A stretch of DNA of 64,000 nt from Candidatus Eiseniibacteriota bacterium (lineage in GTDB: Bacteria > Eisenbacteria > RBG-16-71-46 > CAIMUX01 > VGJL01), in contig CAWBWI010000001.1 in NCBI GenBank assembly GCA_963792585.1, forward strand, positions 1,248,001 to 1,312,000. Reading direction: 5' to 3'. This document shows positions 818-32,535 of the stretch, one piece after another. Within the stretch, counting starts at the first letter, position 1, and each line of letters begins with the position of its first letter. Made by a program: the position numbers and the translations under genes. The notes below the pieces were generated by a model. That model made no database searches and was not told the origin of the DNA. It was given only the letters and a program-made list of their open reading frames with translations.

Positions 818-2044
818 CTAGAACTCCTGCAGGATCGACGCCGGATCGAGTCGCGTCGCGCGATAGGTAGGGTACCAGCTGCCGAGCAGTGCGATGCGCC
901 ACGGCGATCAGAAGCGACCAGACGAAGTAGATCGGAACCGGCTGGACTGCGAGTCCGGCAAGCTCCGGCCCCAGGATCAAGCGCGGAGAGCGTGCCGAGC
1001 AGGTATCCGCCCACGCCCGCCCAGGACTCCCAGGATGATCGACTTCGCGAAGAACAGGCGGTAGACGCTCCCGCGCGTCGCCCCGAGCGTGAGGAGCGTG
1101 CCGATCTCGCGCCTGCGCTCCTCCACGTTCGCCCACATGTAGTTCGCGATCGAGATCGCGCCCACCAAGCGAGATGATCACCAGCAGGATCAACGAGATC
1201 TTGGCCATCAGCCGGTTCGTCTCGATCTGGGTGTTGACGATCTGCCCGATCGTCGTGATCCGGGTGTCGGGGAGGATGTTCCGCAGCTTGCCGAGGAGTC
1301 CGTCGGAGATGGCGGAGCAGCAGCCCATGATCTCGATGGCGCTCACCTGCGGGCCGGTCCCCAGCAGATCTCTGAACGACGTGGAGGTGCGCGAAGACAC
1401 GATCGTCGTCGATCGTGCCCGTCTCCGGCAGACACACGAGCGGTCGTGAACTCCCGCCCTTCGATGGTGACCTTGACGCCATCCTTCAGGTTCAGGCGCT
1501 GCGCAGCGACGCTGCCGACGAGGACCTCGGTCGGCGCGAGCGAGTCGATCGCCTTGCGCTGGAGACGCTCGTCTACGTAGGAAGGCCCATTCTTCACTTC
1601 GGGGCTCACGCCGCAGGCGGCGGCCAGTTCGGCGCCGTCGAGTCCGGCGCTCTGCCAGATCGGTTTGGAGGCGAGTTCGTTCGCCGGCAGGATCCCGGTC
1701 AGAATGACCGGAACAGCGCCGACCTTCACCCGCCGCGTCAGCTTGGGCGAGAGGTTGTCGACGCCCGGGAGCATCGAGGTGGCGACCCGCTCGACGTACT
1801 CTTCCGGAAAGGTCGGCGCGTCGATGTCGGCCGTGTAGTAGTCGTCCACCGAAGCCGCTTGCGGAAGCACCAGGATGTTCGCGCCGAGGTTGTCGAGCTT
1901 GATCGCGACCGCCCGCTCGGAGACCGTGGCCACCGACTGGATGCCGACGATGACCGCGATCCCGACGGTGATCGCGAGCAGCCCTGAGACCATGCGCGAC
2001 TTGCGGAGCCAGAGTTCCTTCCAGAGAATCGTGCGGAGCTTCAT
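818..2044 (-). CDS. MacB/FtsX-family ABC permease, frameshifted
   Basis: [27 protein letters not shown]-terminus; [19 protein letters not shown]tsX motif; ends [10 protein letters not shown]. Pieces in ORFs 1343..2161, 324..1400, 977..1168. Confidence 0.85.
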
Positions 2045-2057
2045 CGGCCCGGCCCCC

Positions 2058-2826
2058 TCACTTCTTCGCGGGAGCGCAGGAGGCGTTCGGATTCTGGACG
2101 GTCGTCGGGACAGCAACCGCCCGCCTTCATCGTCGCTGCCTGCACCAAGGCGTTGCGACATCCGCCGCGCCGGTGTAGGTGCCGGTGACCTGCCCCTGGG
2201 CGTTGACGACGAGCGTGACGGGCTCGGTGGATGCGAGATTGACCTTCATCTGGGTCAGAAACGCCGCCTCGGCCGGGTCGTCCATGTCGATCTGGACCGT
2301 GACGCACTGTCTGCTGCATCTGCCCGCAGGCAGCGGCACAGGCTGCCGTAGCCCCGGACTGCGCCGCCATGCTCCTTCGGCTCAGCAGAAATGAAGACCG
2401 CTTTGCCCGATCTGAAGCAGCTGAAGGATCTCGGCCTTCTTCGGCGACGGGACCATGGCGACGAGCTTGTCCGCCGTCGCCTGCGCCGCCGGCAGCCCGC
2501 CGGCGATGACGCCGTTGCGCGCCGCGACGATGATGAGCGGCACCGGCGCGCCGGCCAGGCGGATACTTGGCCACAAGCTCGGCGTTCGCCGGATCCGACC
2601 TGATCGAGTTCGACCAGGGTCGGCTTTCTTCACCTGCTTCATCGCCTGCTTGATCATGTCCCTGGCCTGGTCGACACCTGTCGCCCCTTGGTCGGTGACG
2701 AGGATGAAGGCGATCTTCTCGTGCTTTGCCGCAGAATCGAGATCCTTCTGCGCCGAGGCCGCGGCGACCGATCCAAGCAACGCCAAGGAAGAGGATCGCG
2801 AGGGCAAGACTACGGACAGACATCAT
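2058..2826 (-). CDS. Exported hypothetical protein with C-terminal GGCCP motif, frameshifted
   Basis: Signal-peptide-like start MMSVRSLALAILF; continuous coding signal over ORFs 2382..2807 and 2127..2339; reconstructed end GGCCP..QNPNASCAPAKK*. Confidence 0.6.
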
Positions 2827-2918
2827 GACCCCCTGTTGTTCGTGTCCCTGTGCGCTGTCGATGGCGAATCTATCTCCGCGATCCGTGGCAGATCGTTCGA
2901 TGAAGTGTCCCGGCGCGC

Positions 2919-3320
2919 TCACTTCCTGCTCCCGCAGGAAAGCCGGTTTCCGCGTGGGCTGCAGGCGTGATCGCCGGCGCTCGCCACTGGGGGCATCATG
3001 GGGCAGCATCCGCCCGAGGCCTTGATCTTGGCCGCACGTTGCCGGTCGGCGGCCAGCCCGGGCACGTCTGTGAAGCACTGCCCGAGACACTCGAGGAGTT
3101 TCTCGTGGAAGACCGTCTCCGCCGGACGAAGGCGGTAGAAGCACCAGAGCCCCTGCTTGCGAACCTCGACGAGTCCCGCCCGGCGCAGGTAGTTGAGGTG
3201 ATGCGATGCCTTGGCCTGCGGCACTCTCAGGATCGTGATGAGGTCGCTGACGCAGAGTTCGCCGTCCTGAAGGAGGTGGAGGATACGGAGGCGGGTCCGG
3301 TCCGCGAAGGCCCGGAACAT
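2919..3320 (-). CDS. ArsR/SmtB-family transcriptional repressor
   Basis: FRAFADRTRLRILHLL..ELCVSDL...SHHLNYLRRAGLV..RKQGLWCFYRL; C-terminal GGCC. True start may be slightly upstream. Confidence 0.92.
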   Translation of the reverse strand: MFRAFADRTRLRILHLLQDGELCVSDLITILRVPQAKASHHLNYLRRAGLVEVRKQGLWCFYRLRPAETVFHEKLLECLGQCFTDVPGLAADRQRAAKIKASGGCCPMMPPVASAGDHACSPRGNRLSCGSRK

Positions 3321-17496: not shown

Positions 17497-18165
17497 TCAG
17501 GACCCCTCCGGGTTACGTCCGGCCAGCGCGGCCGCCGCGGCCGCGGCGCGCTCTTCGAGTGCTGCCACGCGGGCGGTGAGTGGACCCAACGCCGCATCGT
17601 CCGTGGCAGCTCCGGCCGGTGCCGGGGCCATCCCCTGCTGCTGGCGGCCACGGACGAACTTCAAGTATCCGAGGCCGATCGCCACGATCAGGGCAAAGAG
17701 GATGACCCAAAACCTCGCCACGGAGTTGCCCGAGAAGACCACCCAGCCGACGCCGTAGACCATGGTGAACAGGCCGCCGAGGAGGAGCCCGTTCGAGATC
17801 ACTCGAATCCGCTCGTTCTGGGTGAGGGAGACGACCAGCACGAGCGTGGCGAAGAGGACGAGGATGATGCTCGTCACCCGAGCCCAGTCCTTCAGCTCCG
17901 CTTGGTGTTTCTCGTTGAGGGCGTCCTGCTCGGCCCTCAGGCTGTCGAGTTGCGCCTGCTCGGCCGCCGTGAAGCTGCCGGGGGCCGCCTTGGCGTTCAA
18001 CGACTCCTGCCGCCGCGAGGTCTCCTGCATCCGTTTCGTGTACTTCTCGGCCGGCGACGGATAGAAGGTGTTCACGCCGACACCGACGAATGCCAGCACC
18101 ATGAGTCCGAGGAAGAACGAGAAGATGGTCTGCAGCGCATAGTGCTGCCGATCCGTTGCGATCAT
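17497..18165 (-). CDS. Hypothetical membrane protein (4 TM, coiled-coil loop)
   Basis: FVGVGVNTFYPSP; NGLLLGGLFTMVYG; hydrophobic segments; RBS GGAGG. Confidence 0.7.
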   Translation of the reverse strand: MIATDRQHYALQTIFSFFLGLMVLAFVGVGVNTFYPSPAEKYTKRMQETSRRQESLNAKAAPGSFTAAEQAQLDSLRAEQDALNEKHQAELKDWARVTSIILVLFATLVLVVSLTQNERIRVISNGLLLGGLFTMVYGVGWVVFSGNSVARFWVILFALIVAIGLGYLKFVRGRQQQGMAPAPAGAATDDAALGPLTARVAALEERAAAAAAALAGRNPEGS

Positions 18166-18394
18166 GGTCCCTCCCGTGCGGTTCCGGCGAGTTGCCGGAG
18201 ACGTGCGAATCGCCTCGACTCACACCGGCCCTCCTGCCCGCCTCCACCGCCGAATCTCAGGAAGTCTACCGGAACTGCACCCCTGTTTCCGCGAATCGAT
18301 TGCGGGGCGGGTGACTCCACGCCGACGCAAGTGCTACGATTCTGAGTTTGCTTCGACCGCGGCGCGCGAGACCTTCGGCAAGGAGAAGGGCACT

Positions 18395-20189
18395 ATGAGA
18401 ATCCTCTATCACTATCTCAAGAGATACCGCGGCCGGGTGCTCCTGGCGCTGTTCCTTGCGACCGTGAATCAGTGCTTCTCCCTGCTCGATCCCCAGATCT
18501 TCCGCCACATCGTCGACGAGTACGTATCGAAGTTCAAGCAGTACACCGGCACGGAGTTCTTCCGCGGCGTCTCGATGCTCCTGCTCGCCGCGGTCGGGGT
18601 GGCATTCGTCTCCCGTGTGGCGAAGAACTTCCAGGACTACTTCATCAACGTCATCACGCAGCGGCTCGGCGCGGAAATGTACGCCGACGGCCTGAAGCAC
18701 TCGCTGGAACTGCCGTATCAGGTATTCGAGGACCAGAGAAGCGGCGAGACGCTGGGCAAGTTGCAGAAGATGCGGACCGACGTCGAGCGGCTGATCTCCG
18801 TGGGAATCAACTTCGCCTTCACGACCTTCGTCGGGGTCGTCTTCGTGACCGTCTACGCGATCACCGTTCACTGGCTGATCGCCCCGATCTACTTCTCCAC
18901 GATTCCCATCATCGGCGGGCTGAGCGCCATCCTCAGCCGCAAGATCAAGAAGGTGCAGAAGGTCATCGTGGCCGAGACGACGGCCCTCGCGGGGTCGACC
19001 ACGGAATCGCTCCGAAACATCGAGCTGGTCAAGAGTCTGGGGCTCGCCCAGCAGGAGATCAGCCGCCTGAACGCGACGACGGACAAGATCCTCCAGCTCG
19101 AACTGAAGAAGGTGCGCTACCTGCGGAGCCTGAGCTTCATCCAGGGAACCTGCGTCAACGCCCTGCGCACGGGGATTCTCGGCCTGATGCTCTACCTCAT
19201 CTTCGCGCAGCAGATCACGTTCGGGCAGTTCTTCGCGCTATGGATCTACTCGTTCTTCATCTTCGGACCGCTGCAGGAGCTGGGAAACATCATCAACGTC
19301 TACCGGGAGTCGGAGGTGTCGTCTGAACAACTTCGAGGAGATCCTGCGCATGCCCGCCCGAGCCCCGGCCCGCGTCGCCGGTTCGTCCTCGAGCACATCG
19401 ACAGCCTCGACTTCGACCACATCAGCTTCCGGCACTTGAGCGGCACGACGGACGCAGTCACCGATGTCACGTTCCGGGCCACGAGGGGCGAGACGATCGC
19501 CCTGGTCGGTCCGTCGGGCTCGGGCAAGACCACGCTCGTCAAGCTTCTCGTCGGCCTCTACCGCCCGCACACCGGGCGCGTCTGCTACAACGGGGTGGCG
19601 GCGGACGCCGTCGACCTCGATCGACTGCGCGAGCGGATCGGCTTCGTCACGCAGGACACCCAGCTCTTCTCCGGCACGATTCGGCGAGAACCTCGTCTTC
19701 GTCAACCCGACGGCGACCGACGAGGAGTGCCTGGACGTCCTGCACAAGGCGGCCTGCCAGAGCTTGCTGGCCCGGGCGCCCAATGGGCTCGATACCGTGA
19801 TCGGGGAGGCGGGGGTGAAGGTGTCGGGGGGCGAGAAGCAACGGCTGTCGATCGCCCGTGCGCTCCTGCGTCATCCCGACCTTCTCGTCTTCGACGAGGC
19901 GACCTCCGCGCTCGACTCCCTGACGGAGGAGGAGATCTCGGCCACGATTCGTGAGATCTCTCTGTGGAAGTCGCTCATCACCATTCTCATCGCGCACCGG
20001 CTCTCGACCGTGATGCACGCCGACACGATCTACGTCCTGGAGCGCGGCCGGATCGTGGAGTCGGGGAAGCATGCCGAGTTGCTTGCGATGAAGGGTCTGT
20101 ACTTCGCAATGTGGCGTCAGCAGATCGGGGAACGGGGCGATCCCCCCGCGGTCGAAGATCTGGAGCGTGCGGTGATCTCCGGGCGCTGA
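18395..20189 (+). CDS. ABC exporter, fused TMD-NBD (MdlB/MsbA-like), frameshifted
   Basis: Six-TM domain, [41 protein letters not shown]; joined from ORFs 18164..19954 and 19464..20189. Confidence 0.9.
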
Positions 20190-22749: not shown

Positions 22750-23778
22750 CTATAGCTTGGTCTCGCGCTCCAGAATGATCTCGACGCGACGGTTGTTGGC
22801 GCGTCCTTCAGCGGTGGCGTTATCGGCGATCGGGCTTCCTTCGCCGATCCCCCGAGCCTGGATGCGACCGGAAGGGTAGCCCTTGTGCAGCAGGTAGTCG
22901 CGGACGGCGTCGGCCCGGTGTTGCGACAGGTTACGGTTGTAGTCCTCCGCACCCTGGGAATCGGTGTATCCCTCCACCAAGACGTTGCGGCCGGGACTCG
23001 CGAGCAGCGCATCCGCGACCTGATCCAGCCGCGACTGCGCGCCCGTGAGCAGGATCGCTTCGTCGGATCGAAAGAGGACGCTGCCCGAGAGCGTGATGAC
23101 CATGCCCCGCTCATCCTCCTTGACGGCGGCGAGTTTGGCGAGCGCGGCCTGAGCTTCGGTCGCCTTCTGCTCGGCCTCGATGCGGGCCTTCTGCTCTGCG
23201 GCGAGCTGCTCGGCGGTCGCCTGGCTGCCCCGTTCCGACACGGCCAGTGCGGTACGCGTCTGGTTCAAGGCCTCGGTCTTCTGCTGCATGAGTGTGGCCT
23301 GCTCTGCCGTCCGCTTCTCGGCCTCCACACGTGTTTGTTGCTCGGAGGCCAACCGCTCGGCCGTTTCCTCGCCCCTGCGTTGCGAGATCGCCAGCGCCGC
23401 CCGGGTCACACTTAGATCCTCCGTCTTTTCCTGCAGGATACTGCCCTGCGTCTTCTGGTAATCGCTGTCCGCCCGAGCCTTGCTCTGTTGCTCCGTGACG
23501 ATCGACGCCTGCCCATCCGCCATCTCGGCCTTCCGCTGTGCCACATATGCGAGGTCGCGCGAATGGTACGTGCTGCCGTCCTTGGAGAACGACTTCTCGG
23601 CCTGGGCGAGCGCCTCCTGCGCCTTGTGGAGATCCGCCGGCGCGAGTTGCGCCGCAGGCCCCGCGCTCGCGTGCTGGTAGGCCAATCGGGCGTTGGAGAG
23701 CTCACTCGGTACGGTGGCGGCGCAGCCAACCATGAGCGCTGCACACGCGACCACAATCAACATTCCGGTCGTCTTCAT
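22750..23778 (-). CDS. DUF4398-OmpA lipoprotein with coiled-coil linker
   Basis: Lipobox MVGC; AY.AQRKAE; VITLSGSVLF, EGYTDSQG..YN..LSQHRA, NRRVEII. Confidence 0.9.
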   Translation of the reverse strand: MKTTGMLIVVACAALMVGCAATVPSELSNARLAYQHASAGPAAQLAPADLHKAQEALAQAEKSFSKDGSTYHSRDLAYVAQRKAEMADGQASIVTEQQSKARADSDYQKTQGSILQEKTEDLSVTRAALAISQRRGEETAERLASEQQTRVEAEKRTAEQATLMQQKTEALNQTRTALAVSERGSQATAEQLAAEQKARIEAEQKATEAQAALAKLAAVKEDERGMVITLSGSVLFRSDEAILLTGAQSRLDQVADALLASPGRNVLVEGYTDSQGAEDYNRNLSQHRADAVRDYLLHKGYPSGRIQARGIGEGSPIADNATAEGRANNRRVEIILERETKL

Positions 23779-23798
23779 AGAGGGCTCCTTCCAACCGG

Positions 23799-24149
23799 TC
23801 ATCGGTTGTCACTTCGGAGTTGGCGTACCCGCTCCATCGCCTGCGCGGCTTCCAGCTTTTCGCCCTGCTCACGGGAGAGGACGACGGCCAGCTCGGCGTC
23901 GGCCTCAGCCCGCAGCAGTTGCGACGCGGCCTCATCCTTCTTGCCCTTATCCGACAGGACCCTTGCGCGATCCAGCTCCTCCTTCGCCAACTGCAGATGG
24001 TACGAAGCGCGCGGGACCCCGCTTGCCCCGACCTCCTCCGCGGCGCGGATGGCCGAGGTGGAGGACTCGGTCCGCAGTGCGGGACGGCTTGCACAGCCTG
24101 CGCCGACCACGACGATAAGCAGACTCCCCAACATCAATACACGTCTCAT
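23799..24149 (-). CDS. DUF4398 lipoprotein
   Basis: Lipobox GAGC; SAIRAAEEVGA..P.A.YHLQLAKEEL; RAEADAELA. Confidence 0.85.
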   Translation of the reverse strand: MRRVLMLGSLLIVVVGAGCASRPALRTESSTSAIRAAEEVGASGVPRASYHLQLAKEELDRARVLSDKGKKDEAASQLLRAEADAELAVVLSREQGEKLEAAQAMERVRQLRSDNR

Positions 24150-24181
24150 GATGACCCCCTCACATGCGACGCGACCCGGCC

Positions 24182-24838
24182 TCAGAAGCTGAAGCCCAAA
24201 GCCAACGTCGTGGTGAATCCGTTCAACTTGAATCCGTTCAGGGCGTACTCGGTCTCGTTCAGCTTGATCTTCTGTTCACCGAAGGACGGATTGGCCCAAA
24301 CGTACCGGCCCTCGACCCCGATGAAAGCATTCCGCGAGATGTTCACGTTCAACCCGCCTCCGGTGTGGATCCCGAAGGTCGTGGTCCCATTGAAGGTGTT
24401 GAGATTGTCACTCACGTTGAACTTGGTGAAGTAGGCGCCGATTCCCAGCTCACCGTACGGATCGACCGGCCCGACGGGGATGAGGGCCTTGGCGGACGCG
24501 ATGATCGGGATCACGTTGAAGTCCACCTGACGGCGGGCTGCGATCCCGTTGGCTGCCGCGAATGAGCCGGTACCCTTGAAGTACCCCGCGCCAAGTTCGA
24601 GGGCAAGCGTGGGAAGGAAGTAGTGGCCGATTGCGAGCTCGCCGTTCACACCCGTCTTCGTGTCGCCTTCGAAGGTCGTCTCGAGGTCGACATTGCCGAT
24701 GTTGAACGAAGAGCTGGGCGAGTAGACCCCGCCCTTGAGGGCGACGTAGCTTCCCAGCATCCCCGCTCCGTAAGCCTGCGTTGCGAGACCAGCCACGCCA
24801 AGCATGGTGAGTAGAAACAGCACACGTGTCGTTTTCAC
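24182..24838 (-). CDS. Outer-membrane beta-barrel protein (OmpW/Ail-like, ~8 strands)
   Basis: Signal peptide, alternating strands, PYGELGIG, C-terminal LGFSF. GTG start with AGGAG RBS. Confidence 0.8.
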   Translation of the reverse strand: MKTTRVLFLLTMLGVAGLATQAYGAGMLGSYVALKGGVYSPSSSFNIGNVDLETTFEGDTKTGVNGELAIGHYFLPTLALELGAGYFKGTGSFAAANGIAARRQVDFNVIPIIASAKALIPVGPVDPYGELGIGAYFTKFNVSDNLNTFNGTTTFGIHTGGGLNVNISRNAFIGVEGRYVWANPSFGEQKIKLNETEYALNGFKLNGFTTTLALGFSF

Positions 24839-24959
24839 AATTGCTCCTTCGCGATCATCGATTCCGTGTCGCATGAGATTCCCCTTGTCCGAGGCTGCTG
24901 AGATGCACGGCGCACCCGTGCGGCGCCCAGCGCTGTCTTCCGGTACAGCTGTTCGATAG

Positions 24960-24975
24960 AGCAACTCGCGTGCCG
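24960..24975 (-). promoter_or_regulatory. Sigma-54 promoter (leftward)
   Basis: Minus strand CGGCACGCGAGTTGCT (GG-N10-GC); IHF-like TCAACTGGTTA at 24990-25000. Confidence 0.75.
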
Positions 24976-25039
24976 ACACTTCGATGTCGTAACCAGTTGA
25001 CCCTGCACAAGTTAACAAAAAGTTACTCGTCCGAAGTCG

Positions 25040-25209: not shown

Positions 25210-25240
25210 ATCAATGTGATGACTCAGAACTCAATGTGAT
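25210..25240. promoter_or_regulatory. Candidate activator UAS pair
   Basis: TCAATGTGAT exact direct repeat at 25211 and 25231 (20 bp period). Confidence 0.6.
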
Positions 25241-25307: not shown

Positions 25308-25323
25308 CGGCACGTTGGTTGCT
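25308..25323 (+). promoter_or_regulatory. Sigma-54 promoter (rightward)
   Basis: CGGCACGTTGGTTGCT (GG-N10-GC); IHF-like TGTAAGAGGTTA at 25280-25291. Confidence 0.75.
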
Positions 25324-25447
25324 CCAGTTGCAGCGGACAACCACGCGGGGCGGCGTCTCCATGCGGACCCGGTCGCACGCCCCGATGAGATCCCGAGAGA
25401 GACTGCTCGGGTGAAAACACGGTCCGTGACAGGAATAGGAGCATGTC

Positions 25448-25849
25448 ATGAAGACTTACCGGAGATTCTCCCTGGCTGTGTTCACCGTGATCATGATCGC
25501 TGTTTGCGCTGCGGGAGTCAGCCTGGCCGTCGAGACCCCACGTCACGTGGTCGGAGAAAGTGAAATCCAGGCCAGGATCGATCAGCAGATCGACCAGGCC
25601 GGCGCCGATCGACAGGCGATTCAGACCATGCTGCAGCGCGAGGAAGTCCGGCAGATCGCCGGGTCAGCCGGTCTGGATCTCGAGCGGGCCAGCGCCGCCG
25701 CCGCGGTCCTGTCCGGCCCCTCACTCGAGAGTCTGGCTGCGCAGGCCAGAGCGGTTAACGCCGATCTCGCGGGCGGGGACAGCACCATCGTCATTTCGGC
25801 GACCGCGCTCATCATCATCCTCTTGCTCATCATCCTCATCGCCAATTAG
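25448..25849 (+). CDS. PA2779-like exported protein with Gly-Gly motif and hydrophobic C-terminus
   Basis: Signal peptide; R..I..ML.R.EV; LS..L..LAAQ...LAGG followed by IVISATALIIILLLIILIAN. Confidence 0.75.
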   Translation: MKTYRRFSLAVFTVIMIAVCAAGVSLAVETPRHVVGESEIQARIDQQIDQAGADRQAIQTMLQREEVRQIAGSAGLDLERASAAAAVLSGPSLESLAAQARAVNADLAGGDSTIVISATALIIILLLIILIAN

Positions 25850-25861
25850 GAGCGCTCATTC

Positions 25862-27938
25862 GTGAGAGCTCGGCGTGGGATCGGGGTCTGCTTGGCGGTG
25901 GCGGCTCTTTCTTGGTCCGCCTCCGTCGACGCCCGTATGCCCTCGCGTGACGGGGGCTCTACGGAAAAGGTGCAGGTCCTCGACGTTCCCTTCGTCCCCC
26001 AGAGCGGAGAACTGTGCGGCGGGGCCGCGCTCGCCATGGTTTTGCGCTACTGGGGGATGCCCGGCGTCCTCGCCGAGGACTTCACTGCACTGTTGGAGCC
26101 AGGACTGGCGGGCATACGAACCGGCGCCCTCGTGAACGCCGTCGAGTCCTACGGATGGACCGCGCTTCCCTTGCCGGGGACTGCGGCTGAGGCTCGGAAC
26201 CACCTCGCTCAAGGGCGCCCTGTCATCGCGCTGATCCGGGCCGGTTCAGGCTCCAATCACTACGTAGTGGTCCTGGCCCGAGCCAACGGGTGGGTGGTTC
26301 TCCATGACCCGAACGTGGGGCCGTTCCGGGCCGTTCGCGAAAGCGTGTTCGACGCCGCCTGGTCCGAAACTGGACGGTGGGCGCTTCTGGTACTGCCTCC
26401 GCCCAAGACCGATGAGCAGAACGCGCCGTATCTCGCGACAGCCGACTCCACGACGTTCGAGGCTCCGGAGGCGTGCGATTCGATGGTGGAGGCGGGGATT
26501 CTCTTGGCGCAGCAAGGAGACACGGCGGCAGCGGAACTCCAGTTCCTGGCGGCCCAGTCGCCTGTCGCCCGCCTCCGCCGCGCCGCTGCGCGAACGCGCG
26601 GGACTGCGATTTCGCGCCGAGGACTGGGCGGGCGCGGGTCGACTGGCGGAGCGCGCCCTCGCCCTCGATCCGCGCGATGCATCCACCTGGCGGTTCCTCG
26701 CAGGCGCCCGCTTCCTGGCCGATGACGTCGACGGCGCGCTCTCCGCGTGGAACCATGTGTCCGAACCGCGGACCGACCTGACACGTATCGATGGTCTGAC
26801 GCGCATCCGCTTCTCGGCCGTGGCCCGCCAGCTCAACCTGCCGCCGGGGCGGCTTCTCACACCGAGCGCCTTCCGCCAGGCCCGCCGTCGTCTGGCCGAA
26901 GTGCCGGCCCAGTCGGAGTTCCTGTTGAGCTTGAGACCCCTTCCGGGCGGCAACGCTCAAGTGAACGTGACACTCCTGGAACGCCCGCCCGTGTTCGATG
27001 GTCCCTTGGATGTCGGGAGCGCAGGCATCAAGGCTCTCACCGGACGTGAGATCGCTCTGGATGTCGCAAGCCCCACCGGGAATGGCGAGTTGTGGACTGC
27101 CGGGTGGAGGTGGTGGAAAGACCGGCCCCGCGTCTCGCTGGCGCTGACGATTCCGGCGGCTGGAGGCCGCCCCGGGATCTGGCGACTGGACGGATTCTGG
27201 GAGCGACAGGCCTACGGAGCTCCGGTCGGATTTGGTTCGGGCGACACGACTCGTGCGTCGGTGAGCCGAGAGCAACGCCGACGTACGGCGCTCTCCTTCG
27301 CGGACTGGCTTGGCCCGGATGTGCGTATGGAGGTCGGCGCGGCATTGGATGAATGGGTCGGAAGGGGCGCCCACCTCTCGCTGGAGGGAAGCGTTGAAAC
27401 GCGATGGGCGCGCGACCGTCTGGCGCTGGTAGCAGGGGCGGCACGGTGGGTGAACCTGAAACACGGCGCTCCGTTCGGCACCGGCGTCATGTCCCTCCGA
27501 TGGAGCTCGAACGTTCTGGATGGCAGCGACGCGTGGCAAATCCGCATGGGCGTATCCAGCACGACAGCGGATGCCCCTCTTGCGCTCTGGTCCGGAGCGG
27601 GAACAGGTTACGGGCGCGCGCCGCTCCTCCGTGCTCACCCCCTGCTGGACGGAGGCGTGTTACGCGGCCGGATCTTCGGACGCACGCTCGCCCACGGAAC
27701 GATCGAAAGGCAGGCCTGGCCATGGAGACTCGGGATCGTGCAGATCGGCTGGGCCCTCTTCGTCGACGGCGCCAAACCATGGGACACGGGGCAGACTGCT
27801 CCAATCTCGTGGCAGGTGGATGGCGGGACGGGCCTCCGCCTGCGGGGTTTGGGCATGAAGGGTCAGCTTCGGATCGACGCTGCCCGCGGACTCGAGGATG
27901 GGAGCTCGGCGGTATCCGTCGGCTGGCAGATTCCCTGA
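25862..27938 (+). CDS. C39-like cysteine peptidase-TPR-POTRA-beta-barrel fusion, one frameshift near 26570
   Basis: Signal peptide; LDVPFVPQSGELCGGAALAMVLRYWG, HYVVV, HDPN; TPR LAERALALDP.DA..W; POTRA-like RIDGL.R....V.RQLNL.PG......ARRRL; Trp/Gly-rich amphipathic strands ending VSVGWQIP. Confidence 0.75.
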
Positions 27939-27950
27939 ATCGGATCGACC

Positions 27951-29621
<1,671 letters not shown>

Positions 29622-29632
29622 GGCCACCTCCT

Positions 29633-30233: not shown

Positions 30234-30898
30234 ATGAAACGACATTCCAGCCAGCATTGGCATCCTCGTCTTGATCGCGGCGGCAATCACCGCCGGTTGC
30301 GCACAGGAACGGGACGGCGTTCGAGCCGCCGCGTCGGCGCAGGAGCGGGCCCCGCAGAAGCCCCGCGTCGAGACACTCGTCATTCCGAGCGGGACCAGCG
30401 TCATCGCGTCCCTCGATACGCGACTCTCATCCGAAACGAACCATGCAGGTGACGCGTTCGGCGCCACGACGACCGAACCCGTTATCGTTGCCGGGAAAAC
30501 GGCCATCCCGGCGGGCGCGCGGATCCACGGAGTGCTGCGCGACGTCCAAGCCTCCGGCCGGATCAAGGGCCGCGCCCGTATGACGCTCGCCTACGAGTCG
30601 ATCGTCGACTCGCAGGGCAAGACACACCCAATCTCGGCGCAATCCCTCACGCTTGCAGGCGGCATCCACCACCCATAGCGACGTCGAGAAGATCGCTGCC
30701 GGAGGAATCCTCGGCGCGATCATCGGTGGGGTCACCAAGGGGGGTAAGGGCGCTGCGATCGGCGCAGGCGCGGGGGCGGGCGCCGGAACCATCCTCATGC
30801 TCGCGACGAAGGGCGACGACGTGGAACTCGAAGCGGGTCAGCGACTGAACGTGCAGATGATGTCTCCTACGAGCATTCAGGTGCTGGCGCAGCGATGA
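30234..30898 (+). CDS. Lipoprotein with TrbI-like beta domain and glycine zipper, frameshifted
   Basis: Lipobox TAGC; IPSGT...LSS....GD.F.....P......IPAGA...G; GGILGAIIGG..GGKGAAIGAGAGAGAG...TKGDDVEL. Confidence 0.75.
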
Positions 30899-31029
30899 TC
30901 CTGAACCCATCAACGGCCGGCGCCGTCCGATCGATTTCCCATCGGAGATCGAACACGGCGCCCCAATGATGTCACCACTGCGGGCCCGGCAGTTCACGCC
31001 GCAGTCAGAGACAATGAGAGGAGACCGCG

Positions 31030-31530
31030 ATGAAGAGCACTCGAATGATTCTGCTGGCGGCCACGCTGGCCGCTATCTTGGGCCCTGCCCTTGCTTTGGC
31101 GGGTCCCGATACCGATGTCGGTTTCCGGGGATGGGGTCCACGGATCGGGCTGTCGCTCAACCCCGACCAGGTCCACTTCGGAGCCCACCTCGATTTCGGT
31201 AACTTCGCGAAGCACGTTCGCTTTCAACCCAACCTGGAGTTGGGTTTCGGCGACGACGTGAAGCTCTTCACCGCCAACGCCGAGGCGTCGTATCGCTTCA
31301 GCTCCCGCTGGGACGTCTGGTCGCCATACCTCGGCGGCGGGATCGGCGCAAACGTCAAGAGCGTCGATATCGGTAAGGACAGCACCTCACAGACTGACCT
31401 GGGCGTCAACCTGCTGGGCGGGGTCGAGAAAGGACTCTCGGACGGGGATCGGTTCTTCATCGAGGGCAAGTTCAGTCTGAACGACGTCCCCGACGCCAAG
31501 GTCACGGTCGGATGGACGTTCTATCACTAG
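31030..31530 (+). CDS. Small outer-membrane beta-barrel protein
   Basis: Signal peptide; PDQVHFGAH, FQPNLELGFG, PYLGGGIG; C-terminal GWTFYH. Confidence 0.75.
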   Translation: MKSTRMILLAATLAAILGPALALAGPDTDVGFRGWGPRIGLSLNPDQVHFGAHLDFGNFAKHVRFQPNLELGFGDDVKLFTANAEASYRFSSRWDVWSPYLGGGIGANVKSVDIGKDSTSQTDLGVNLLGGVEKGLSDGDRFFIEGKFSLNDVPDAKVTVGWTFYH

Positions 31531-31603
31531 TCGCAAAGCAGCAGGGGCGCCGTCGGTTGGCGTCGCCCTTCCTGCCCCTCGGCGGCATGACAGGAGGTTT
31601 CCC

Positions 31604-31753
31604 ATGTTGTGGACCATTGCAGTCGTACTCGTCGTGCTTTGGCTGCTCGGCCTTCTTACATCTTTCACCATGAACGGGCTCATTCACGTTCTGCTCGTCA
31701 TCGCGATCATCGTCGTGCTTCTTCGCATCATTCAGGGCCGACGGCCGATCTAG
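31604..31753 (+). CDS. lmo0937-family small membrane protein (49 aa; not in ORF track)
   Basis: AGGAGG RBS; MLWTIAVVLVVLWLLGLLTSFTMNGLIHVLLVIAIIVVLLRIIQGRRPI*. Confidence 0.9.
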   Translation: MLWTIAVVLVVLWLLGLLTSFTMNGLIHVLLVIAIIVVLLRIIQGRRPI

Positions 31754-31902
31754 ACAGCGTGGCGGCGCAGACGCCGCCCGACACGAAGTGCATTGGGGTC
31801 GCTCTCGATGGTCACGGCACTTCCGCCTTGGCAGGTCGAGGACAACAGGGGTTCCGTCGGACATCTGCGGCCCGTCGACGGACTCATCCAGGAGGACTTG
31901 AT

Positions 31903-32535
31903 ATGCGATTCACCCGAAGTCTACTCACCGCGGCGCTGGGTCTCTGTTTCGCGCTGCCGGCCGCGGCTCAGTACATCGGTGTCCTGCAGTCCGCCGAGAC
32001 GATGGACAAAGGCACCTTCAAGCTCTTGGTCGCCCCGATCATGGCCTTCGGCAAGAATGGAGCAGACGATGAGTTCGGCGTAGCCGCCCGCGGAGGGTAC
32101 GGATTCACCGAACGCTTCGACGCCGAAGCCAAGCTCGGCTTCTTCGAGAACGGCACGTACGCCGGCGCGGACGGCGAGTTCTGGATCCTGCAGGGCAAGG
32201 AGAAGGATGCCGGACTGGATGTCTCATTGACCGGAGGCGTGCATTGGATGTTCGGGAAGAAAGGGGCCCTCGACACCATGGGGTTCGACGTCACGCCCTT
32301 GTTGAGCGGGCACGTGAACAAGAGTATCGAGCTGTGCGGCGCCCTGGATGCCTCGTTCGAGTCGATCAATGATGCGCCGAAGGGCGTCGACGACACGTTC
32401 ACGAGAGTGCACCTCGTACCTGGAATCGAGTACCGCCTGTCCGATTCCGCCGATCTGGTCGGTGAGATCGGCATCGGGCTCAACGACGATTCGTATACCT
32501 ACGCGGGTATCGGCGTCGCGTTCTACCTCCGCTAA
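31903..32535 (+). CDS. Probable outer-membrane beta-barrel protein
   Basis: AGGAGG RBS, signal peptide ending AAA-Q, amphipathic strands, C-terminal GVAFYLR. Confidence 0.7.
   Translation: MRFTRSLLTAALGLCFALPAAAQYIGVLQSAETMDKGTFKLLVAPIMAFGKNGADDEFGVAARGGYGFTERFDAEAKLGFFENGTYAGADGEFWILQGKEKDAGLDVSLTGGVHWMFGKKGALDTMGFDVTPLLSGHVNKSIELCGALDASFESINDAPKGVDDTFTRVHLVPGIEYRLSDSADLVGEIGIGLNDDSYTYAGIGVAFYLR

Follow-up and report, generated by a model that had tools for sequence, protein, structure and literature searches.

A C39 peptidase fused to a predicted POTRA-Omp85 barrel and its PA2779-like partner in an Eiseniibacteriota genome

In this study, we analyzed a 64,000-nucleotide stretch of DNA from Candidatus Eiseniibacteriota bacterium (GenBank assembly GCA_963792585.1, contig CAWBWI010000001.1, positions 1,248,001 to 1,312,000 of the forward strand; referred to below as the window, to whose first letter all coordinates refer) and describe a pair of adjacent genes on its plus strand. 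The first gene encodes a small exported protein that resembles the PA2779 family; the second, once a single extra base is set aside, encodes one 691-amino-acid protein (25862-27938, GTG start) in which an exported C39 cysteine peptidase is joined to tetratricopeptide repeats (TPRs), a POTRA-like segment, and a predicted Omp85-type barrel. By its sequence and its model, this fusion is a variant both of the PA2778/PA2779 gene pair and of the Omp85-tethered enzymes, and we found no paper on it. Our preferred reading, to which we give about an even chance, is that the pair stands behind a sigma-54-type box, that the TPR domain grips the small protein, and that the C39 domain likely cuts it after a Gly-Gly motif in the periplasm, thereby freeing its helical domain.

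RESULTS

Peptidase domain of the large protein

By profile, catalytic set, and predicted fold, the large protein is a member of the C39 family, whose enzymes have a papain-like fold with catalytic Cys, His, and Asp residues and an oxyanion Gln and cleave their substrates behind Gly-Gly, Gly-Ala, or Gly-Ser. Its first 232 codons (25862..26557, plus strand) specify a signal peptide of the ordinary type (about residues 1 to 24), the peptidase domain (residues 37 to 182; 25970-26407, plus strand), a linker, and the start of the TPR domain. This N-terminal part scored 39.7 bits against Pfam Peptidase_C39_2 (cutoff, 24) and 38.6 bits against Peptidase_C39 (cutoff, 22); no patatin match was found in Pfam for the large protein, whose N terminus consists of C39 and TPR domains. 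The original prediction, made by a model from the letters of the window, had described a signal peptide followed by an intact Q/C-H-D set, and both are present, the motifs QSGELC (Q47, 26000-26002; C52, 26015-26017), HYVVV (H133, 26258-26260), and HDPN (D149, 26306-26308), all on the plus strand, lying where they had been placed. All four catalytic residues are invariant across 55 sequences.

The structural model used here is an AlphaFold2 (AF2) prediction for an intact homologue, P0001, which is 95% identical to the window protein; it was built with an alignment of 55 relatives and has a predicted local distance difference test (pLDDT) score of 73.1 and a predicted template modeling (pTM) score of 0.58. 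Its peptidase domain superimposed on the ComA peptidase domain (3k8u) with a Z score of 18.5 and a root mean square deviation (RMSD) of 1.8 Å over 132 residues, and on LahT150 with a Z score of 18.4 (VIA-align). A profile of the large protein matched the same kind of enzyme among the sequences of solved structures, namely, ComA (E value, 3e-7) and PCAT1 (1.2e-5). Between the C39 domain and the TPR domain lies a variable, poorly conserved linker of 21 residues.

TPR, POTRA, and barrel domains

The C-terminal half of the large protein is predicted to consist of a POTRA domain and a 16-strand Omp85-type barrel that is very divergent by sequence. The remaining 458 codons and the stop codon (26562..27938, plus strand) encode the rest of the TPR domain, the POTRA segment, and the barrel, and the protein ends in VSVGWQIP. 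In the P0001 model, a TPR domain of three pairs (residues 204 to 296; 26471-26750) is followed by a POTRA-like beta-alpha-alpha-beta-beta segment (residues 300 to 365; 26760-26957) and then by the 16 strands of the barrel (residues 366 to 689; 26958-27935), all encoded on the plus strand; the positions estimated earlier for the TPRs and the POTRA segment were close to these. The helix at residues 289 to 296 runs directly into the POTRA segment (from about residue 300) without a spanning linker, and another helix, at residues 383 to 390, falls in a stretch with a pLDDT below 50. A loop resembling loop 6 of Omp85 proteins (L6), after which five strands follow, occupies the corresponding position (residues 568 to 608; 27564-27686, plus strand).

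The barrel assignment comes mainly from structural comparison. The top Foldseek matches of the model (probability, 1.0) were BamA (9n2e_A; E value, 1.6e-8), TamA (4c00; 1.7e-7), Toc75, and Sam50, and C39 domains came next. Modeled residues 304 to 691 aligned with TamA 4c00 over 273 residues (Z score, 19.4; RMSD, 3.9 Å) and with BamA chains at Z scores of 17 to 19, and the modeled TPR domain aligned with designed TPRs at a Z score of about 18 (VIA-align). An Omp85-like barrel had been proposed from Trp-rich strands in the sequence, with AlphaFold and Foldseek named as the way to check it, and a barrel is what was predicted, with BamA and TamA at E values of 1e-8 to 1e-7. In the language-model Atlas, the neighbors of residues 297 to 691 were clusters of Omp85, POTRA, Omp85_2, and patatin-Omp85 proteins (score, 0.97). 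Against the Pfam Omp85 family (PF01103; cutoff, 24), the relatives P0366 and P0505 scored 24.0 and 23.1 bits, respectively, at model positions 224 to 307.

Every structured domain of the large protein is conserved. The L6-like loop is the most conserved part, with 17 of 41 columns invariant (41%); the remaining structured domains reach 9 to 17%, and the signal peptide and the linker have no invariant column; residues 568 to 608 hold the densest conservation, which includes L-R-A-H. Loop 6 of Omp85 proteins carries a motif of the (V/I)RG(F/Y) kind.

The POTRA-barrel part has 760 representative relatives (clusters at 50% identity) at an E value of 0.001 or less and 599 at 1e-10, and roughly 107 of the best 150, as judged by where the match starts, are full-length fusions. 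Shorter relatives were considered as natural forms that lack the C39 domain and were rejected: 18 were scanned with Pfam and 5 were read, and none of these 5 starts with a signal peptide. The first residue of P0366 and P0420 is an internal Met located where the TPR domain begins, and P0361, P0373, and P0412 begin in midsequence, which points to truncated or split gene calls.

The small PA2779-like protein and its Gly-Gly site

The small gene (25448..25849, plus strand) is an open reading frame (ORF) of 133 codons for amino acids. As judged by eye, the signal peptide spans about residues 1 to 27, and just after its cut lies an extended R-H-V-V-G-E segment (residues 32 to 37; 25541-25558, plus strand). 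The AF2 model (pLDDT, 73.9) contains four helices, at residues 37 to 62, 65 to 74, 78 to 87, and 91 to 108, and a terminal helix at residues 118 to 132; a Foldseek search of the PDB found no known fold for it (best E value, 4.8). By sequence, the small protein is a borderline member of the PA2779 family, because its score against NCBIfam NF033919 (PA2779 family, a subfamily model) is 38.9 bits, just below the cutoff of 40, and because NCBI labels the small proteins of close relatives (P0266 and P0281) "PA2779 family protein." Against Pfam DUF6627, it scored 17 bits (cutoff, 27). The layout of the PA2779 type is present, that is, a signal peptide, a helical body, a Gly-Gly-type motif, and a C-terminal membrane helix.

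The candidate cleavage site, Gly109-Gly110, was read from the codons and the alignment; it lies in the sequence L-A-G-G (25772..25777, plus strand), at the end of helix 91 to 108, and in the AF2 model it marks the start of a linker of low confidence, after which the tail helix follows. In the ORF translation, the 23-residue tail (25778..25846, plus strand) consists of D-S-T and then about 20 Ile, Leu, Val, and Ala residues, and one residue lies beyond its predicted membrane helix (residues 118 to 132). An exported protein ending in LAGG and a very hydrophobic tail of about 22 residues was what had been noted before, and it stands with a tail one residue longer. The gap between the two genes is 12 nucleotides (25850-25861), as had also been noted, and the sequence AGGAG (25848-25852, plus strand) precedes the large gene.

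Among 52 aligned small proteins, position -1 (the second Gly) is Gly in all 52 and position -2 (the first) in 51. Hydrophobic residues precede the motif at positions -4, -8, -11, -15, and -18, a pattern that fits the predicted amphipathic helix. Conservation of Gly-Gly was a point on which the original prediction could have failed; the motif was found without exception in the 56 small proteins that are complete and are encoded beside a partner with a C39 domain.

Predicted complex of the two proteins

The two proteins are predicted to bind one another through the TPR groove of the large protein and the RHVVG segment of the small one. The C39-TPR part (residues 37 to 300) was folded together with the small protein (residues 29 to 122) in three runs, and three controls were included. 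The co-fold score was 0.63 (0.63, 0.65, and 0.60 in the individual runs), and the best control scored 0.00. Of 157 solved complexes, 116 reached a score of 0.63, as did 2 of 215 mismatched pairs; with the custom alignments used here, these counts give only a rough calibration. Contact agreement among the runs was 100%, and the pLDDT of the partner was at least 70. The confident interface joins the concave face of the TPR domain (residues 210 to 287) to residues 32 to 37, 40, 43, 44, 47, 89, and 90 of the small protein; the TPR residues that make these contacts are more conserved than the other TPR residues (0.87 versus 0.75). Residues A216, A224, G247, R277, and L285 of the groove are invariant.

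Conservation of the gene pair and a variant that lacks the C39 domain

In the genomes surveyed, the arrangement of the pair goes far beyond chance, because it recurs in 60 of 64 distinct systems and because the POTRA-barrel part has relatives in hundreds of representative clusters. The loci were drawn from related and species-representative genomes, and the 64 systems were counted after the removal of duplicates, with that of the window included. The small gene is adjacent and on the same strand in 60 systems, upstream in 57 and downstream in 3, and the flanking DNA is absent in the remaining 4; three more small genes are incomplete, two being frameshifted and one cut by the end of a contig. 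The neighborhood survey suggested earlier therefore finds the pair conserved. According to the record titles, the phyla that carry this branch are Eisenbacteria, Krumholzibacteriota, Latescibacterota, Acidobacteriota, and Gemmatimonadota, and the gene pair is common in uncultured soil bacteria. The three loci with the small gene downstream on the same strand (L062, L066, and L059) belong to Acidobacteriota/Vicinamibacterales records.

One system departs from the rest in its domain content. The large protein of genome G005 has no C39 domain, its signal peptide being followed by the TPR, POTRA, and barrel domains, and the small partner has His-Gly in place of Gly-Gly and a different N-terminal segment. 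No Peptidase_C39_2 match was found in the G005 genome (94% complete) at an E value of 0.01 or less. Among the forms without a C39 domain that were read, only the G005 protein has a signal peptide of its own and counts as bona fide. The L6-like loop motif persists in this protein at 29% overall identity. G005 keeps the small partner in the absence of the peptidase domain, so the partnership is independent of the peptidase; the variant is also consistent with a connection of the first Gly to the peptidase. The two G005 genes (L012/L076; positions 966-1424 and 1411-3138) overlap by 14 bases.

Frame break in the large gene

As assembled, the large gene contains one extra base, a +1 frame break in CAG TCGC CTG (26558..26561, about 26559, plus strand) inside the TPR region; a frameshift had been suspected near 26570, and this is its actual site. 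Homologues read Q-[S/C]-L-S-P at this point. The part downstream of the break has 271 homologue matches at an E value of 0.001 or less, which are proteins of about 691 amino acids with an N-terminal C39 domain, and uninterrupted copies occur in nine related genomes. The claim that one gene is present rather than two is therefore upheld. A contig from a public run (X1) that is 91% identical across positions 26300 to 26800 differs by 44 substitutions and by a single gap, which is one base absent at 26559.

We consider it quite probable that the frame break is an assembly indel, because other genes in the window are also frameshifted, in which case an intact protein is probably produced in this organism. 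Conserved genes contain at least three further frame breaks within about 12 kb, and the source genome (5.4 Mb) is 84% complete despite being in only 7 contigs. Within the gene, the codons that flank the break are fully conserved, and the sequence downstream of it is 95% identical to the best homologue, P0001, with no stops or decay. Split copies of the large gene number 8 among the 64 distinct systems, each broken at a different place, and 6 of the 7 other than that of the window come from one series of metagenome-assembled genomes (MAGs) with the same naming. These observations also count against the opposite reading, in which the frame break is genuine and this copy is either a pseudogene or expressed as two polypeptides, the downstream one of which would be without a signal peptide. 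In favor of a real break are the presence of the extra base in the assembled sequence, the lack of a homopolymer run at the site, and the fact that none of the public runs contains the window's own stretch (best share of words, 0.14); on balance, we judge a genuine break to be distinctly unlikely.

A programmed frameshift was also considered and rejected: the site has no slippery run, and the extra base is absent from all homologues and from the 91%-identical contig. Two interrupted genes near the pair may be recorded here. An ABC transporter gene (18143-20186, plus strand) is split over two frames in its ATPase domain (ABC_tran positions 2 to 77 and 80 to 137), and the sigma-54 activator gene that follows the pair (27951-29627, minus strand) is split over three frames, that is, by two frame breaks.

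Upstream region and gene neighborhood

A sigma-54-type -24/-12 box, GGCAC-N5-TTGC, lies at 25309..25322 on the plus strand, 126 to 139 nucleotides upstream of the ATG of the small gene. Boxes of this type occur 3 times in the window against an expectation of 0.52. Of 56 upstream sequences from relatives, 21 contain the strict form, where 0.013 would be expected per 300 nucleotides, and an alignment of 12 upstream regions shows no variation in its core columns. A second sigma-54-type box (24961-24974, minus strand) faces a divergently oriented gene (24182-25018, minus strand) whose product is a barrel-like outer-membrane protein. Two direct copies of TCAATGTGAT (25211-25220 and 25231-25240, plus strand) lie about 70 to 100 nucleotides upstream of the box at 25309; the window contains 2 matches where 0.07 would be expected, none of 100 shuffles reached 2, and the TCAATGTGAT block is conserved upstream in close relatives. 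By their sequence and position, the TCAATGTGAT copies are candidate sites for an enhancer-binding activator, and the two divergent boxes that flank them look like parts of a shared, activator-dependent control region. No inverted repeats were found upstream of the small gene.

The leader between the box and the start codon (25334-25447, about 115 nucleotides) is conserved in sequence among close relatives. RNAalifold gave no indication of a structured RNA in this conserved leader (15 pairs, 0 compensatory; -6.67 kcal/mol).

Immediately downstream, on the minus strand, lies the gene for a sigma-54 enhancer-binding activator with XylR_N, V4R, AAA+, lid, and HTH_8 domains (27951-29627), and such an activator neighbors the pair in about 20 loci. 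The sigma-54-type box, together with outer-membrane and OmpA-like neighbors, points to a regulated cell envelope function for the pair in this lineage. Several of the envelope genes around the pair are conserved neighbors in 12 to 22 loci. The envelope cluster of the window (22750-25018, minus strand, and 30271-32532, plus strand) comprises an OmpA protein with DUF4398, a second DUF4398 protein, the barrel-like protein, a TrbI-like protein, a YMGG glycine-zipper protein, and two OMP_b-brl proteins.

DISCUSSION

Proposed mechanism

The arrangement of the two proteins suggests a sequence of events that begins with export. Sec would carry both proteins over the inner membrane, and the small protein would remain anchored there by its C-terminal helix, because it combines a signal peptide with a hydrophobic stretch of 20 residues that ends just one to three residues short of the C terminus. 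The C39-TPR-POTRA part of the large protein would face the periplasm; this orientation is suggested by the periplasmic location of POTRA domains, by the absence from the model of a spanning linker between the TPR and POTRA domains, by the parallel with PlpD, and by the fact that the partner is exported. In the predicted complex, the TPR domain would catch the N-terminal segment of the small protein, and the peptidase, on its flexible linker, would then likely cut after Gly-Gly. Such a cut would free a helical domain of about 80 residues from the C-terminal membrane helix. The barrel would serve at least as an outer-membrane anchor, in place of the lipid anchor of canonical PA2778 proteins.

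Several observations weigh against this scheme. Those that concern the barrel are that the window protein's own Pfam Omp85 score is 13.4 bits (E value, 0.057; cutoff, 24); that neither BamA, TamA, nor any other Omp85 protein was among the best 60 of 73 solved-structure sequence matches (E value of 10 or less), where the profile search returned TPR and C39 matches; and that the POTRA and barrel assignments rest on a model with a mean pLDDT of 73. In the complex, the contact residues on the side of the small protein show no higher conservation than its other residues (0.65 versus 0.64), and Gly109-Gly110 and Cys52 lie outside the confident contacts. Residues that the co-fold does not name are uncertain in it; therefore, docking of Gly-Gly at Cys52, the point that the co-fold had been proposed to address, is neither supported nor disfavored. 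The geometry is also demanding, in that the cut site lies a few residues from the expected inner-membrane helix and the enzyme hangs from the outer membrane. Bacteriocin leaders have hydrophobic residues at positions -4, -7, -12, and -15, and the register before Gly-Gly in the small proteins (-4, -8, -11, -15) departs from this. The site is laxer in canonical PA2779 tails, of which 62 distinct examples have Gly-Gly (47), Gly-Ala (6), or something else (9) at the site, the last including P-A-A-G, A-A-G-R, P-A-G-Q, and V-G-Q-D; the peptidases of the canonical pairs keep the catalytic Cys motif. Thus, the Gly-Gly motif could be partly structural. Finally, the pairing of a missing C39 domain with His-Gly is a single case.

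Some of these points favor an alternative in which the small protein is a TPR-bound, inner-membrane-anchored adaptor or tether and not a substrate, the Gly-Gly motif is a flexible hinge next to the membrane surface, and the C39 domain acts elsewhere or does not cleave. The confident interface is that of the TPR domain with RHVVG, with neither the catalytic Cys nor Gly-Gly named in it; G005 retains the small partner, the TPR, the POTRA, and the barrel without any C39 domain; 9 of 62 canonical tails accept other residues; and the linker that contains Gly-Gly, between two helices, is modeled with low confidence. However, the Q/C/H/D set does not vary among the 55 sequences, which indicates that the enzyme is under selection for catalysis, and the Gly-Gly motif is without exception in the complete partners of C39-bearing proteins, its sole loss being in the one system without a C39 domain. 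A gene for a Gly-Gly peptidase beside a gene for a Gly-Gly protein is, moreover, the usual signature of an enzyme and its substrate, and such pairing by adjacent genes is established for peptidase-containing ABC transporters. We therefore regard the adaptor explanation as unlikely, although it deserves to be taken seriously.

Cleavage of the small protein after Gly-Gly, as we prefer to read the locus, leaves the task of the barrel to be considered. It can be envisioned that the locus encodes a machine for processing and export in which, after the cut, the barrel passes the helical domain or the tail peptide across or into the outer membrane in the manner of two-partner secretion (TPS). The L6-like loop is the most conserved part of the large protein, more so than a passive anchor would seem to need, and its motif is kept in the divergent G005 protein that lacks the C39 domain. 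Conservation of the L6 loop is, however, a general structural feature of Omp85 barrels; therefore, it is no proof of transport. The Omp85 class does insert or translocate proteins, as described in a report on PlpD (PMC11116518), and FapD works with an export barrel, FapF. On the other side, only one POTRA domain is predicted, no TPS-type match was found in Pfam for the 133-amino-acid small protein at an E value of 0.1 or less, and no relative of the POTRA-barrel part was found within 4 kb of canonical PA2778 genes (0 of 80 loci; hidden Markov model [HMM] search, E value of 1 or less). The account of PlpD also indicates that an Omp85 scaffold can merely hold a periplasmic enzyme (PMC11116518). 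We give this explanation only a slim chance. In its most explicit form, TPR capture and the C39 cut would be followed by movement of the helical domain outward through the Omp85 barrel or of the hydrophobic helix into the membrane by way of a lateral gate, and we hold this version to be a shade less probable still; if true, it would make the large protein a processing-and-export device in one polypeptide and possibly the first bacterial Omp85 protein that handles an alpha-helical membrane peptide.

It is very improbable that the large protein is a type Vd-like autotransporter, with a barrel that moves the attached C39-TPR passenger out to the cell surface to act on external targets: PlpD has the same order of domains (enzyme, one POTRA, 16-strand barrel) and patatin-type Omp85 proteins are among the nearest Atlas clusters, but the model has no TPR-POTRA linker long enough to thread the barrel, the predicted binding partner is Sec exported and tail anchored, the canonical relatives have a lipoprotein-type signal peptide (with an invariant lipobox Cys) and the same kind of partner, and the PlpD passenger is itself reported to be periplasmic (PMC11116518).

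Comparison with known systems

The closest relatives of the pair are the PA2778 family cysteine peptidase (NF033920) and the PA2779 family (NF033919; DUF6627), which are named from genes of Pseudomonas aeruginosa and are uncharacterized; no functional work on PA2778/PA2779 was found among the papers listed by full-text literature searches. The original prediction had named this pair, and it was right in kind, in that the small protein scores near the NF033919 cutoff and the large one has the same C39-TPR order. For comparison, 80 metagenome loci of true PA2778 members (L106 to L185) were examined. The two-gene layout is the same, a canonical PA2779-like gene being present in 65 of the 80 loci (E value of 0.001 or less), mostly directly upstream. 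Both kinds of small protein have a signal peptide, a conserved N-terminal segment right behind it, helices, a Gly-Gly-type motif, and a membrane helix; in canonical PA2779 proteins, the N-terminal segment is M-[IV]-G-T-E and the membrane helix is preceded by P-A-G-G. Only the canonical proteins have a conserved segment after the membrane helix, T-D-I-L-G-[FY]-T-x-[VI]-F-P-F, which the window clade lacks. The large proteins share an exported C39 domain followed by TPRs, and residues 39 to 277 of P0001 align with positions 2 to 228 of the 255-position PA2778 model. Nevertheless, the N-terminal part of the window protein scores 57.5 bits and P0001 scores 59.2 bits against the PA2778 model (equivalog cutoff, 150 bits), whereas true members score 283 to 317.

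The two groups also differ in how the enzyme appears to be held. True PA2778 members have 299 to 351 amino acids and consist of the C39 and TPR domains only, whereas the window protein adds about 390 residues of POTRA and barrel. In the true members, Cys24 of a lipobox, L-[AS]-G-C, is invariant in all seven aligned sequences (our own observation and not a published definition), and these proteins are therefore likely to be lipoproteins; by eye, the window protein and its 55-sequence alignment have an ordinary signal peptide and no conserved lipobox. These sequences suggest that the window clade is a sister, though a divergent one, of the PA2778/PA2779 pair, with a C-terminal Omp85 barrel in the place of the N-terminal lipid anchor.

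A second comparison is with PlpD, whose patatin-like enzyme domain reportedly lies in the periplasm, carried by an Omp85 scaffold (PMC11116518). Like PlpD, formerly assigned to type Vd, the window protein is predicted to have an enzyme domain, one POTRA domain, and a 16-strand Omp85 barrel in a single chain; unlike PlpD, it has a C39 cysteine peptidase with TPRs instead of a patatin lipase, and a dedicated small partner. The type Vd layout invoked in the original prediction holds for the order of domains and fails as a model of surface display, the enzyme domain of PlpD being described as periplasmic (PMC11116518). TamA and BamA provide the best structural matches for modeled residues 304 to 691, with about 10 to 13% identity, and have three or five POTRA domains where the window protein has one. 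TPS systems (TpsB/TpsA) have two POTRA domains and cargo with a TPS domain; here, there is one POTRA-like segment and no TPS match.

Among C39 enzymes, the large protein resembles the peptidase-containing ABC transporters ComA, PCAT1, and LahT in its fold and catalytic set. In those proteins, the peptidases are cytoplasmic domains of inner-membrane exporters that remove an N-terminal leader from the cargo, whereas the enzyme described here is exported, the leader-like helix belongs to a larger N-terminal part, and a membrane helix follows Gly-Gly. As stated in a study of the Fap system, C39 peptidases cut after Gly-Gly or Gly-Ala at the end of a helical leader (PMC5557850). The same study describes FapD as a C39 peptidase that is exported by Sec, acts in the periplasm, requires its catalytic Cys, and works with the outer-membrane barrel FapF; its target is given there as not known, the Fap proteins being without a canonical site (PMC5557850). 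Unlike the predicted fusion, FapD and FapF are separate proteins, and FapF is a 12-strand, autotransporter-like trimer and not an Omp85 protein (PMC5557850). The window locus has no amyloid subunit genes, and the window protein matches NCBIfam C39_FapD weakly, with 13.4 bits. For the idea of an extracytoplasmic C39 system, put forward in the original prediction, FapD/FapF is already a precedent (PMC5557850), and secretion is unsupported here, where the barrel may be an anchor.

The public names of relatives of the large protein are "C39 family peptidase" or "hypothetical protein," and among the papers listed by literature searches, none of relevance joins Omp85, C39, and POTRA or treats DUF6627 or the family names. 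A 2014 survey of Omp85 proteins lists metallo-, WD40-, and patatin-type N termini (PMC4104836), and a term search of its main text gave no occurrence of "peptidase," "C39," or "TPR" (PMC4104836). For PA2778/PA2779 pairs in general, the present analysis offers a concrete hypothesis of enzyme and substrate, with Gly109-Gly110 as the candidate site and the predicted TPR-RHVVG contact as the means of recruitment. If the predicted barrel is correct, the Omp85 superfamily gains a protease-bearing branch beside the patatin-bearing PlpD, and a large one, with its 760 representative clusters lying in poorly known soil phyla; such a branch would lend support to the view that the Omp85 scaffold has been reused to hold periplasmic enzymes.

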